Shown piece by piece: positions 51,301 through 64,000 of a stretch of 64,000 nt of DNA. Position 1 is the first letter of the stretch. Each line of letters starts with the position of its first letter. Source of the stretch: Rhodospirillaceae bacterium (GTDB lineage: Bacteria > Pseudomonadota > Alphaproteobacteria > Rhodospirillales > UBA2165); NCBI GenBank assembly GCA_947467145.1, contig CANIGJ010000002.1, positions 13,423 through 77,422 of the forward strand, written 5' to 3'. Made by a program: the position numbers.

Positions 51301-54300
51301 ATGAACGCATCCAAGGAAATGGCGGGCGGGCGCGACGCGCTTCTCGATGCGAACGGCATTAATCTCGGCCAGTCGCTTCCGCTGCATCCCCACAATGCCG
51401 TTCTGCAACTGTGGCTGGAGCTGGGTGTCGTCGGAGCAGCTGTCTATTGCATCGTTCTCGTTGCATTGGCCAGCTTGGCCGCTCGCGTGCCAAACGCGCC
51501 ATTGGCGCTCGGCCAGTTCGTTTCGGCACTGGTCATCGCAAACGTCAGCTACGGTATCTGGCAGGCTTGGTGGATTGCCACGCTATGGTTCGCTGTCGCC
51601 ATGAGCGTGCTGCATCAGCGTGGGTCCGCCGCCGACTCGCGATGGTAATCCGAGGCTACTTGTAGTAGCCGCCAAGCCGGCGGCCACGATTGCCGATCTG
51701 ATCGAAAAGCCCGGCCGCATTGCCCGCGGCGCGGCGCAGTCCATCGAGATTTCCGCGATAAAGACTCGAGCTCAGATTGAATATGATCTGGCCGAACAGC
51801 GCCCAGGCAAAGGCGAGCCGCGAGAAGTGCGGAAATTTCGAGACGAAATAAACCCGATTGACGACCTGTTGACGGCCGATCATGAACTGGGCCGAGGATC
51901 GGACTGGGCGACTATAGTGATTGACCGAGGCGGTGCCGACCACAAACAGACGGTGAGTCCGGTTCACGCGGTGACTGAAATCTACGTCCTCAAGATAGCC
52001 GTGGCCGAGATACCAATCATCATAACGATATTGTTCGATCACCTGCCGCCGCCAGACTGTCGCGCCGCCGTAAAGCCATTGGGTCTCTGTCAACCTGGTC
52101 AGCGGCGGGATCTGGGATTGGAAGCCGGACGCCAGCAAACGGCCCGGCGCGGGATGATCGATCAGGAAGAATCGACTGATGCGTGCCGCGGTTGCGATCG
52201 GTTGGTTGAGGATTGCGAAGCCGGCGCCGCCCGTGTCCGCTGTCGCCGTCGCCCAGAAATCGAGCATGGCTTCAGAGGCATTGGGTTCGAGGACGAGGTC
52301 GTCGTCGAGAAAACCGACGAGATCGGCGTCCGGCGACAATGCATCGACGCCGGCATTGCGTTGTGCCGCAAGCGACGGCGGGAAAACGCGGACATACGTG
52401 ATCGACAGATTCGGGAATTCTGCGATCACATGTTCGATCGTTGGATTGCTGCCATCGACCACAATGATCTGATGGGCGGCCAAGGTCTGTCCGGCGATGC
52501 TGCGCAGCAGAGTCCGCATGTCGTCAGGGCGATCCTTCGTCGGTACGATGTAAGCGAGTTTCATGATGGTTACAAAAAGACCGACATTGTTTCATCGCCG
52601 GGTGGCGTCAGGTATTCGTGGATATAGGACCGCAGCGCGGCGCAGTTGGCACGGAATGCCTCCGGTGGCATCGCTTCGATTGCCCGGAGGGCGGTGACGA
52701 TGTTCTCACCGCTGCGCGCGCGTGGCGAAGTGACCGGTGCGGCAAATAGAGGGTCGTCTTCAATCGCATCGTCGAGCACGAATTTGATCGCCGGCACACC
52801 CATATAGACCGCGCTGATGGCTGCGGTCGATCCGATATAAATGACTGCGTCGGCTTGCGAAATCGTATCGCTCAACGACCCATGCGGAGCCTCGTCGAGT
52901 TGGCCAATGCCTGGCCCGATATGAACCTGCGCGTGCGCGGCGATCACGCTAAGCGGCAACGACGGATGAGCGCGGAGCATGAATTTACACTCGGGCATGG
53001 CGCGCGCGGCGGTTTCGATCGGCGCGAGCGCGGCACTCACCGACGGGATGCCCTCCAGCAGCACGAGTACAGTCTTGATCGGTCGCTGTATGGCGTCGCG
53101 CAGGGGCAGCTTGGTGATGTCGGTGTCGCGAAGTGCGCATGCGGCGGCGACATGATCGGGATCGTGCTCGCCCAATGACAAGAATACGTCACGTGATCTT
53201 TCGCCGGTGCAGATGATGCGGTCGGGGGCTGGCCGCAATTCGTCCTCGCCGGCACCGATATAGTTCTTCAGATGCGAAGGAAGGACGGCGCAATGCAGGT
53301 ATCCGAGCGCGGATCGATTCGCTTCACGTGCGGCAACGTCGCATGCATGTTCCCACGGATTGTTCTCGTAAGTATGAATCACGCGCGCCGACGGCAGGCG
53401 TTGGAGCAGCCGTCGCGTCGCGCGTTCGATGAGAATGCCAAGAATGATGTCGCCGCGGGCATGGCGCATCTCGCCGGCCATTCGGCGCGCTATGGCGGGG
53501 GCAGGGGGCACGAAACGTGATCGTATTGCGCTAAATGCGGCCGTGAACAAGTCGCCGAATCCGACGAAGTCGCCGAATGTCACCACGCAAGCCGATCGGG
53601 TGTTCGCTAGGTGTCTCACGGTGGTCCAGGGCAGGCCTTCGACTAGGCCACAATGCACGACATGTTGACCGCGTGCTTCAAGGAATGCCACCAACGGGCC
53701 GTAATAGCTGCTCGTGTAGAAGCCGTTCGCATCGACAGCGGCGGCATTGACCACCGAAAGGAGGACGACATCGGCATCGGCGGGCAGTTGGTCTCTTTTG
53801 CCGAACAACCGGCTGGCGAGGATCCATAATGCTAGCCAGGCAACCGATTTCACGAACCGCAGCCAAGCTCCGCCAGCGCGGGCCGGTGTTTCATGCCCGG
53901 TAGCGTCTAACTCCCATAGCGATGTATTGAGGCGGTCGCGCGATGCGAGCCAAGTATACCACCACAGCCGATTGCGCCCGTTCGCTCGGGTCGCCTCACC
54001 GACGATATCGATGAAGCGCTGAGCCTGAGGAGAATAAACATAGCGCGGCGCAAGGCCGCGGTTGTCGTTATTCCGCGGCGATTTCGGCAAATTTACGATG
54101 ATCGACGTCGGCGACTACTTTTGATTGGCCGTATTGGCGGCCGGGGATGTTCGTCCAGACGAGCGATTCCGGAACGTCGTATAGCTGGTCGCATCCTTTA
54201 CAATAGGGGATGTCGTCGAACCGGCCTTCGCGATGGGCGGCACGCAGTTCGTTATAGGCCGCGCCGCCGACGACGTCGGCGATCGACGCGTTGTCGAGAT

Positions 54301-63300: not shown

Positions 63301-64000
63301 CTGCTCGGTATCGATGTTGATCGTGCGCTCACCGGGGACAATGATCGCTTTCTGCCGTTCGCCCATGAGATGGCCATAACGGATGGGGACATCGACATTA
63401 AACGCGTAGATCGCGCCGTCGCGGTAAAAGGCCGGCCGCAGCGCGGAGCGCGCAACGTTGTAGATCTCGGCCTCGCAATAAGGTGAAACGAAACCGTCCG
63501 GACTTAAGGATTTCGCCCGATTGGGATGAGGATAGTCCATTCGGTAATGGCTGGTAACTGAATCGCAATCGCCAGCTCGCAGCATGGAAATCGCACGGTC
63601 GGTCAGATCGGCCTGACGGAACGGAGTCGTTGGCTGCAGCAACGCGATTTCTCTAACGGCGGCGGAAGATTGAGATCGAAGCCATTCAATGACGTGGGAT
63701 ACGACATCCACAGTTGTCGCCGAGTCCGTTGCGAGATTGTGCGGACGTTCGGCGATCTCGGCTCCCGATCTTTGCGCGATTTCCGCGATCTCATCATCGT
63801 CGGTGGAAACAATTGTCCGCGCTATGAGGCGGGATCTAAGGGCATGCTCGATTGAATAGGTAATTAATGGCTTTCCGCCTAAAAGCCGTACATTTTTTCG
63901 GGGCACTCTCTTGCTGCCGCCGCGCGCGGTAATGAGAGCAATGGCCGTACGTTCGGTCACGTCGGCGGCTTACGCGCAATAACGAAATGACAGCGCGCAT

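Follow-up and report, generated by a model that had tools for sequence, protein, structure and literature searches.

The 64,000-nucleotide stretch analysed here, referred to as the window, comes from a Rhodospirillaceae bacterium (assembly GCA_947467145.1, contig CANIGJ010000002.1, positions 13,423 to 77,422) and ends in a dense minus-strand array of glycan genes. With a probability of roughly 0.55, this array belongs to an island of 22 or more glycan-biosynthesis genes with two branches for ulosonic acids activated by cytidine monophosphate (CMP), which reaches from about 34 kb of the window to more than 10 kb past its end. One of these branches lies beyond the window edge, and the other is built around KdsA*, a member of the KdsA family that is encoded together with a stand-alone CBS pair and a radical S-adenosylmethionine (SAM) enzyme. 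A more tentative proposal is that KdsA* acts as a phosphoenolpyruvate (PEP):aldose-phosphate synthase whose substrate is not arabinose 5-phosphate (A5P), and that together with its radical SAM partner, which resembles BtrN and DesII, it may give rise to an undescribed ulosonic acid that many Alphaproteobacteria, Magnetococcales and members of other phyla would carry on their surface glycans or on glycoproteins.

Gene families were assigned with Pfam and NCBIfam profiles and by sequence search of the PDB; for g7 and g11, AlphaFold2 (AF2) models were also compared by Foldseek. The array within the window consists of the following genes:

63250..63960, minus strand: g1, NeuA/PseF-type CMP-ulosonic-acid cytidylyltransferase, 236 aa (PF02348, 82 bits)
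62531..63238, minus strand: g2, class I SAM methyltransferase (Methyltransf_11, 35.6 bits, above cut-off)
61791..62528, minus strand: g3, protein of 245 aa with no assigned family and a glycine-rich motif, ELGSGVST
60004..61794, minus strand: g4, ATP-binding cassette (ABC) exporter of PglK/MsbA type with fused transmembrane and nucleotide-binding domains (ABC_membrane and ABC_tran)
58343..60007, minus strand: g5, PFTS-motif polysaccharide biosynthesis protein (motif SAPFTSTAY)
57276..58346, minus strand: g6, methyltransferase with an N-terminal CxxC...CxxC zinc-ribbon (Methyltransf_23, 48.6 bits; cysteines seen in the translation)
56450..57286, minus strand: g7, Fe(II)/2-oxoglutarate (2OG) oxygenase (2OG-FeII_Oxy_3, 24.8 bits, below the cut-off of 27)
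55500..56384, minus strand: g8 (KdsA*), metal-type KdsA-family PEP aldolase of a distinct clade, with KANRS changed to KDCRS
55103..55528, minus strand: g9, stand-alone CBS pair, 141 aa (CBS, 55 bits)
54068..55081, minus strand: g10, radical SAM enzyme with a C-terminal SPASM/twitch-like auxiliary-cluster domain (Radical_SAM, 63 bits)
52570..54090, minus strand: g11, transferase-like protein of glycosyltransferase (GT) fold B (TIGR04326, 41 bits, below cut-off)
51656..52564, minus strand: g12, GT2 glycosyltransferase, last gene of the array (Glycos_transf_2, 40.7 bits)

KdsA* scores above both KdsA equivalog cut-offs (NF003543, 338.5 vs 242 bits; TIGR01362, 322.9 vs 314 bits), and alignments to the solved KdsA structures 6mdy, 3fs2, 3tml and 3t4c show that it keeps the metal ligands C32, H206, E243 and D254 as well as the PEP-binding residues K61, K66, K144 and R174. 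Searches gave more than 5,000 matches at E<=1e-60. The clade was described from the best 120 of 5,472 strong matches, each of which is at least 76 % identical to g8. Within this sample, pairwise identity ranges from 69 to 100 % with a median of 77 %, compared to 41-49 % identity to three solved KdsA. [quoted passage not shown] The corresponding segment reads DKANR[ST]S in all four solved KdsA and DKD[C/G/S]RS, mostly with KDCRS, in 120/120 clade members. Altogether, the clade has 27 positions that are conserved to at least 90 % and at which its residue differs from the one common to the canonical structures; the changes include R76H, H103S (DxH motif) and P256N/N257T (DGPN motif). Members of the clade are found in metagenome-assembled genomes (MAGs) labelled Alphaproteobacteria, Magnetococcales, Gemmatimonadota, Lentimonas and Enterobacterales.

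A CBS-encoding gene adjoins KdsA* in every locus examined, although in L020 and L022 the ORF caller had missed it and it was recovered by tblastn (labels of this kind denote loci and contigs of relatives). This adjacency spans Rhodospirillaceae, Magnetococcales, Gemmatimonadota and other MAGs. The window protein g9 aligns to the C-terminal half only of the A5P isomerase models (their last 115-125 residues, at positions 155-268 of KpsF and 202-325 of KdsD), and its best PDB match is the CBS pair of the arabinose-5-phosphate isomerase 4o9k at 1e-14. In contrast to the KdsD/KpsF isomerases, it consists of the CBS pair only, with the N-terminal catalytic SIS domain missing; no SIS domain was found in g9 and no SIS open reading frame (ORF) adjoins it, either in the window or on the overlapping contig L001 described below. 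The CBS protein is likely a regulatory partner of KdsA*.

The third member of the cassette, g10, reaches 24.3 bits for SPASM at a cut-off of 21.5, and a comparison with its counterpart in L007 shows the invariant cysteines C20-x3-C24-x2-C27 together with C222, C247, C248, C294 and C297. Its nearest solved relatives are the sugar-modifying enzymes BtrN and DesII, both distant at about 1e-6. Its small family has 35 representatives (E<=1e-30) in a set of 1.84 billion. A GTDB scan with g10 returned 15 true loci, all from MAGs, labelled Rhodospirillaceae, Caenispirillum bisanense, Magnetococcales, marine Alphaproteobacteria and, in one case, a 'Synechococcus' bin; the scan contained no near-identical locus, the best being 75 %. 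By tblastn and ORF clustering, KdsA*-CBS is adjacent in 11/15 of these loci. Behind KdsA*-CBS the usual order is a cytidylyltransferase, a small haloacid dehalogenase (HAD) family protein, the radical SAM enzyme and a large protein, which either resembles g11 or combines an N-terminal tetratricopeptide repeat (TPR) region with an unknown C-terminal domain. The cytidylyltransferase and HAD protein of these sister loci are of KdsB and KdsC type and score above the NCBIfam cut-offs.

In L007, the order methyltransferase, 2OG oxygenase, KdsA*, CBS, radical SAM, and further on g11-like protein and GT2, with a convergent Wzy_C gene, is the same as in the window. A compact cassette comprising Rrf2, KdsA*, CBS, KdsB, KdsC, the radical SAM enzyme and a TPR protein (L034, L016 and L023) is found among ordinary metabolic genes, outside polysaccharide loci. 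In L034, the compact cassette is followed by an M48 peptidase. The TPR protein of the compact cassette possibly glycosylates proteins. NeuB, a PFTS protein and KdsA*-CBS are combined in the window locus, in L033 and in L035. No description of the KdsA*-CBS-radical SAM cassette, of the PFTS/TIGR04326 proteins or of a pathway with this inventory was found in literature searches, which also gave nothing relevant on TIGR04396, TIGR04417 or kdsA paralogues. This agrees with the first-pass annotation of this DNA, in which the inventory was not recognised as a described pathway.

The array had been put forward in that annotation as a single, translationally coupled unit of twelve genes. The ORF listing reproduces the 12 minus-strand ORFs exactly, from 63960 down to 51656, and with the longest-ORF starts the junctions are indeed 11, 2, -4, -4, -4, -11, 65, -29, 21, -23 and 5 nt (negative values being overlaps); the summed ORF length is 12,276 nt in a span of 12,305 nt. 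Four of the junctions hinge on the choice of start codon, as later starts called on identical contigs (528 aa for the PFTS protein, 333 aa for the methyltransferase g6, 273 aa for the 2OG oxygenase and 125 aa for the CBS protein) turn the overlaps of -4, -4, -11 and -29 into gaps of 74, 65, 4 and 19 nt. The array is compact and co-directional under either set of starts. For g11, one NCBI call gives 427 aa, while homologues favour the long form. Promoter-like and terminator-like sites inside the array show no excess over shuffled sequences (5 vs 8.7 and 14 vs 13.4, respectively). Long antisense ORFs of 166-335 aa are present on the plus strand at 51620-52627, 57579-58286 and 54233-54733, over g12, g6 and g10, respectively; as they fully overlap genes with family matches and conserved orthologues, and as such ORFs are common in GC-rich DNA, they were treated as spurious.

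The upper boundary of the array is the edge of the window rather than the start of an operon, with g1 starting only 40 nt from the window end. Searching for exact matches of the g1 protein led to the metagenomic contig L001 (41.9 kb), which shares 10,751 bp with the window at 100 % identity. Upstream of g1, this contig continues with a further 10 closely spaced genes in the same orientation. The "twelve genes" are therefore a window-edge artefact. Taken over both sequences, the co-directional unit comprises no fewer than 22 genes in at least 22 kb, and the 12-ORF array is its downstream half. The upstream genes are as follows:

L001 2-1339: NeuB-like synthase fused to a C-terminal cupin, the cupin resembling D-lyxose/D-mannose isomerase
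L001, upstream of the window edge, same strand as the array: HAD-IA phosphatase
L001: two TagF-like proteins of 472 aa and 461 aa, GT-B type, with TIGR04396-like proteins in the same half
L001: second PseF-like cytidylyltransferase, below the PseF cut-off of 206 bits
L001 4224-4934: CmoA-like (carboxy-SAM synthase-like) protein, 161.5 bits vs a cut-off of 193
L001, upstream part of the array: formyltransferase; polysaccharide deacetylase; two methyltransferases

These genes weaken one argument of the first-pass annotation, which had emphasised a cross-pathway combination, in which a NeuA-type activating enzyme is paired with a synthase of KdsA type rather than NeuB type. Both enzyme assignments hold. 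For g1, the PseF model gives 159 bits, short of its cut-off of 205.7, against at most 48 bits for the KdsB models, and PDB matches to NeuA reach 1e-34 compared to 1e-7 for KdsB; by these scores g1 is closer to NeuA/PseF than to KdsB. The combination itself is largely an edge artefact, as a NeuB-type synthase lies directly past the window edge together with an HAD phosphatase and the second cytidylyltransferase. Pairing of g1 with KdsA* is nevertheless possible, because the locus is without the KdsB and KdsC carried by sister loci.

The NeuB-like synthase scores 129 bits against an equivalog cut-off of 400, and its fusion to the cupin suggests a Kdn-type (mannose-derived) branch. The PseF scores of the cytidylyltransferases of the locus lie between 122 and 159 bits. 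The two TagF-like proteins, u3 (472 aa) and u6 (461 aa), are mutual paralogues at 28 % identity and are the sole paralogue pair among the large unknown proteins. The presence of a CmoA-like protein within a glycan array hints at carboxymethyl rather than methyl transfer. In its NeuB-type synthase, HAD phosphatase, PseF-like enzyme, TagF-like and TIGR04396-like proteins, methyltransferases and PFTS protein, the locus resembles those for nonulosonic acids (Neu/Pse/Leg/Kdn), from which it differs by scores well below the equivalog cut-offs, by the fusion of NeuB to a cupin and by the addition of a KdsA-type branch.

The remaining part of the island lies downstream of the array, within the window. 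From about 34 kb onward the GC content is 0.55-0.61, compared to 0.62-0.67 in the first half of the window. Its genes are listed here from the array downwards:

50401..51648, plus strand, convergent: Wzy_C-domain membrane protein of the O-antigen ligase / O-oligosaccharyltransferase type (Wzy_C, 40.7 bits)
48255..50291, minus strand: GT-C (PMT_2/ArnT-like) membrane glycosyltransferase (PMT_2, 44.4 bits)
46207-46629 and 46038-46190, minus strand: SxtJ-like protein and DUF5989 protein, both called on identical contigs
44190-46025, minus strand: O-carbamoyltransferase (Carbam_trans_N, 369 bits; Carbam_trans_C, 246 bits)
38531..44181, plus strand: five genes for two short-chain dehydrogenases/reductases (SDRs), an HddA-like GHMP kinase, a NudE-like NUDIX protein and a fusion of ADH_zinc with GFO/IDH/MocA (Pfam and NCBIfam)
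36900-38420, minus strand: phosphodiesterase/alkaline-phosphatase-like protein, 506 aa (Pfam)
34983-36890, minus strand: 635-aa protein of no assigned family
34210-35067, minus strand: methyltransferase-like gene (Pfam)

The five-gene module is 62-87 % identical to that of L010, a Caenispirillum MAG, and is seen upstream of KdsA* in three relatives. In L010 and on the P0021 contig, the five genes run co-directionally into KdsA*-CBS-radical SAM as one block, with the last module gene overlapping KdsA* by 4 nt in L010; the KdsA* of the P0021 contig is 88 % identical to g8. Genes for the carbamoyltransferase and SxtJ, the phosphodiesterase-like protein and a 633-aa protein flank this block on the P0021 contig, and in L010 only the homologue of the 635-aa protein (633 aa) does so. 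As the five-gene module joins KdsA*-CBS-radical SAM in relatives, the coordinates of the 12-gene array capture only part of a larger functional unit. Judged by these gene orders, the unit is split in the window over both strands, its parts about 10 kb apart, with KdsA*-CBS-radical SAM inserted into the minus-strand array. The genes at 34210..38420 mark the end of the low-GC island and have counterparts in the same order beside the five-gene module on the P0021 contig. A Wzy-like protein is also encoded downstream of the array, alongside the Wzy_C and PMT_2 genes, and the convergent placement of Wzy_C is repeated in L007. The SxtJ-DUF5989-carbamoyltransferase trio resembles saxitoxin-type carbamoylation sets, which suggests an O-carbamoylated glycan.

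Profiles support the general description of the array in the first-pass annotation as one for a CMP-ulosonic-acid glycan with methyltransferases, a fused ABC exporter and PFTS, GT-B and GT2 proteins. All families it named were reproduced, except that the methyltransferase identity of g3 lacks profile support: g3 has no Pfam or NCBIfam match even at E<=5, and the sole PDB hint, the 'methyltransferase-like' 3cvo, has an E-value of 0.43, so that g3 is a possible methyltransferase at best. An orthologue of g6 (45 %) holds the same position in L007. For the exporter g4, the scores for PglK (342.6 bits, cut-off 1000) and MsbA (277 bits) are both below the equivalog cut-offs, and g4 is likely the flippase of a lipid-linked glycan. 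The PFTS protein g5 exceeds the cut-off of TIGR04417 (118 bits vs 100), PF27878 is recorded for an identical gene, and PDB sequence search gave no match; it is probably a GT-B-type transferase.

The large protein g11 is distantly tied to the TIGR04326 'surface carbohydrate biosynthesis protein' family, with 32 homologues found. Its AF2 model (pLDDT 92.1) has the two Rossmann domains of a GT-B fold, and Foldseek matches it to UDP-GlcNAc 2-epimerases, TagF, Cps3D-type polymerases and GT1/GT4/GT28 enzymes at E=1e-9 to 1e-6. A g11-like gene comes after the radical SAM gene in L007, L015, L018, L019 and L022, and behind it orthologues of g12 are found in L007 (64 %) and L022 (52 %). A common origin of the g11 family with the PFTS proteins (hhalign probability 0.2 %) or with u3 (a match of only 31 residues in the GT-B donor loop, probability 7 %) was rejected, as was a kinship of g11-like and TPR proteins, for which BLAST finds no link.

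The oxygenase g7 belongs to a tiny family with 16 homologues among 5.8e9 proteins. Within this family H175-x-D177 does not vary, conservation of H246 and R258 is at least 90 %, and the AF2 model (pLDDT 88.9) matches the 2OG oxygenase fold; by its facial triad, its basic 2OG residue and its modelled double-stranded beta-helix fold, g7 is a member of the Fe(II)/2OG oxygenase superfamily. The top Foldseek matches in the PDB are PasI (9ei6/9ei7) and PolD (9blq), followed by prolyl hydroxylases; Tpa1/OGFOD1 and WelO5 are also among the top 50. Octosyl-acid phosphates are the substrates of PasI and PolD. A search of the PDB with the family profile returned PasI alone at a non-significant E-value of 0.78. 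The L007 homologue (46 %) stands in the same context of methyltransferase, 2OG oxygenase, KdsA*, CBS and radical SAM genes as in the window.

PasI and PolD are 2OG oxygenases of the octosyl-acid branch of polyoxin/nikkomycin-type nucleosides, which also contains the radical SAM enzyme PolH and the phosphatase PolJ (PMC5365060). There as in the island, a PEP-derived C8 sugar acid in phosphate form would be associated with a radical SAM enzyme, a phosphatase and a 2OG oxygenase, and by this analogy it is plausible that g7 tailors a C8 sugar acid. The likeness is an analogy only, at about 15 % identity and TM-scores of 0.5-0.7, and a kinship of g10 with PolH is no part of it; unlike the nucleoside pathways, the island is devoid of nucleoside chemistry and of a PolA/NikO-type enolpyruvyl transferase.

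Gene content, homology, synteny, the clade-specific changes in the active site and the folds suggest a chain of chemical steps, in which the use of g1 for the KdsA* product and the nature of the acceptor are likewise proposals. In the branch beyond the edge, the NeuB-cupin synthase, the HAD phosphatase and the PseF-like cytidylyltransferase would act together with the TagF-like GT-B proteins, the formyltransferase, the deacetylase and the methyltransferases. The branch within the window would be a rearranged copy of the conserved KdsA*-CBS-radical SAM cassette. Here, KdsA* would condense PEP with an aldose phosphate to a Kdo-type acid phosphate, and the translationally coupled CBS pair would sense a nucleotide or CMP-sugar ligand and regulate KdsA*. 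Tailoring of the sugar would fall to the radical SAM enzyme (BtrN/DesII-like), the 2OG oxygenase (PasI/PolD-like) and the methyltransferases, including the zinc-ribbon one. The KdsB and KdsC usual for the cassette appear to have been lost, and either the HAD phosphatase and a NeuA/PseF-type enzyme (g1) or housekeeping KdsB/KdsC could substitute for them. The glycan would then be assembled on a lipid carrier by the PFTS protein, g11 and the GT2 enzyme, flipped by the exporter of PglK/MsbA type and transferred to lipid A-core or to protein by the convergent Wzy_C protein. A fused ABC exporter best matching PglK and a Wzy_C protein beside glycosyltransferases are reminiscent of PglK/Wzk export with WaaL/PglL-type transfer; in contrast to that system, the score of g4 (343 bits) is far below the PglK cut-off, and neither an initiating transferase nor any further Pgl enzyme was identified.

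Several observations weigh against this reading of the island or against a new sugar as its product. The nearest homologues of g7 (55-63 % identity; 55-59 % in L005, L006, L008 and the P0008 contig) adjoin genes for a GGDEF-hemerythrin protein and FMN_bind_2, and there are no sugar genes beside them. KdsA*-CBS and a cytidylyltransferase occur without the radical SAM enzyme in L032 and L033 (a Gemmatimonadota MAG and an 'Enterobacterales' MAG). Conversely, a g10-type radical SAM enzyme occurs without KdsA*-CBS in L012 and L014 (also L009 and L011), where it is followed by a small cupin, a TylC3-type nucleoside diphosphate (NDP)-sugar C-methyltransferase, SDRs, a WecA-like GT4 and a GT1. As the two parts also occur apart, the tie of the radical SAM enzyme to a Kdo-type sugar is not obligate and its substrate may be broader. 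No initiating phosphoglycosyltransferase was seen in the window. Furthermore, plain Kdo 8-phosphate (Kdo8P) synthesis by KdsA* is compatible with the equivalog cut-offs that it passes, and because the minimal cassettes contain no gene to supply a precursor, the substrate may be a common central metabolite such as A5P.

The last two points lead to the possibility, itself rather doubtful, that the product is ordinary Kdo. KdsA* and its CBS partner would then serve as an additional Kdo8P synthase under feedback control, supplying a polysaccharide or glycoconjugate that contains Kdo. The residues typical of the clade would reflect CBS docking, regulation or metal chemistry, and the radical SAM enzyme, the oxygenase and the methyltransferases would modify other residues or come into play once polymerisation has taken place. 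The similarity to the canonical KdsD-KdsA-KdsC-KdsB pathway extends from the metal-dependent PEP aldolase of the KdsA family, with its retained metal ligands and PEP-binding Lys and Arg, to a CBS pair homologous to that of KdsD and to the bona fide KdsC-type phosphatase and KdsB-type cytidylyltransferase of the sister loci. The equivalog scores, this pairing with KdsB and KdsC and the missing precursor gene, for an unusual aldose phosphate, in the minimal cassettes thus argue for A5P as the substrate. Yet the A5P-binding motif, identical in the four solved KdsA, is replaced throughout the clade sample as KD[C/G/S]RS, accompanied by 26 other clade changes which include those in DxH and DGPN, and conservation across phyla of at least 69 % is far tighter than that of housekeeping KdsA. 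The KdsD-type partner is a relic without the isomerase (SIS) domain, a radical SAM enzyme has been added, and the window locus itself is without KdsB and KdsC, having NeuA/PseF-type cytidylyltransferases only. The change of motif, the exceptionally high conservation and the missing isomerase domain speak for a substrate other than A5P. This may be another pentose 5-phosphate, which would explain why the KdsD-derived partner retains the CBS pair alone. It may also be a sugar phosphate from the SDR-SDR-GHMP kinase-NUDIX-dehydrogenase module, by analogy with the route from UDP-GlcNAc via ManNAc and ManNAc-6-P to Neu5Ac-9-P.

It is unlikely that the island serves protein glycosylation rather than polysaccharide synthesis, with a Kdo-type sugar being put on flagellin or a surface protein and the Wzy_C protein acting as a PglL-type O-oligosaccharyltransferase. 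Maf enzymes are able to attach Kdo to flagellin (bioRxiv 10.1101/2020.06.03.131540), and the window combines a PglK-like exporter with a Wzy_C protein. The minimal cassettes (L016, L023 and L034) lie outside polysaccharide loci and end in the protein with TPRs and an unknown C-terminal domain, an architecture that recalls TPR-GT protein glycosyltransferases such as FlmG (PMC7591256). By contrast, the window itself encodes g11, a GT-B protein without TPRs, GT2, Wzy-like and PMT_2 proteins, which are typical of lipid-linked polysaccharide assembly; the TPR proteins have no detectable homology to g11, and no flagellar genes were seen nearby. Very unlikely is the model of the first-pass annotation, namely a single 12-gene pathway in which a NeuA-type enzyme activates the KdsA product, a KdoO-like hydroxylation yields a Ko-like sugar and the result is a capsule of the rhizobial K-antigen type. 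It draws on the NeuA-type g1 and KdsA-type g8, on the lack of KdsB in the module, unlike in sister loci, and on g7 as a credible 2OG oxygenase adjoining KdsA*, and it conflicts with the NeuB, HAD and second cytidylyltransferase genes directly upstream. Its analogy to KdoO, also an Fe(II)/2OG oxygenase encoded near Kdo-pathway genes, fails because g7 gives no PF11004 signal even at E<=5 and no KdoO is among its top 50 structural matches in the PDB; KdoO moreover works on lipid-A-bound Kdo, while the g7 family is mostly found outside sugar loci. The link to rhizobial rkp/group-2-like loci has to be abandoned as well, given that their hallmarks KpsM/KpsT, KpsE/KpsD, KpsC/KpsS and KpsF were found neither in the ORFs scanned from 14.5 to 64 kb nor on L001, that the exporter is of PglK/MsbA type, and that the relatives of the locus are not rhizobia but MAGs of Rhodospirillales (Rhodospirillaceae, Caenispirillum) and Magnetococcales.

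Upstream of the island, the window contains a few further features. Two TPR proteins with GT41 (OGT-like) domains (14566-16176 and 23241-25025, plus strand) and a TPR protein with a class I methyltransferase domain (18438-19703, plus strand) flank a hydantoinase/oxoprolinase fusion (19700-23260) and are possible protein-glycosylation enzymes. An AsmA-family protein of 1230 aa (26544-30236, plus strand) lies just outside the low-GC island. A full-length bacterial RNase P RNA of class A (9144-9539, minus strand, 326 bits) is the only Rfam match in the window.

Ulosonic acids such as Kdo and sialic, pseudaminic and legionaminic acid are key determinants of the bacterial surface, and their pathways are targets for antibiotics and vaccines. 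Against this background, the novelty of the locus lies in a widespread, tightly conserved and uncharacterised KdsA subfamily and its cassette, which annotation pipelines label as an ordinary Kdo8P synthase. It is a good lead to a possibly new sugar, although as a system the locus is not of a new kind. Should plain Kdo turn out to be the product, the locus would be one more elaborate but ordinary O-antigen-type island. If the sugar is new, the cassette would represent a new branch of ulosonic-acid biosynthesis, a widespread annotation would have to be corrected, and the five or six genes involved would be testable as a cassette in E. coli.

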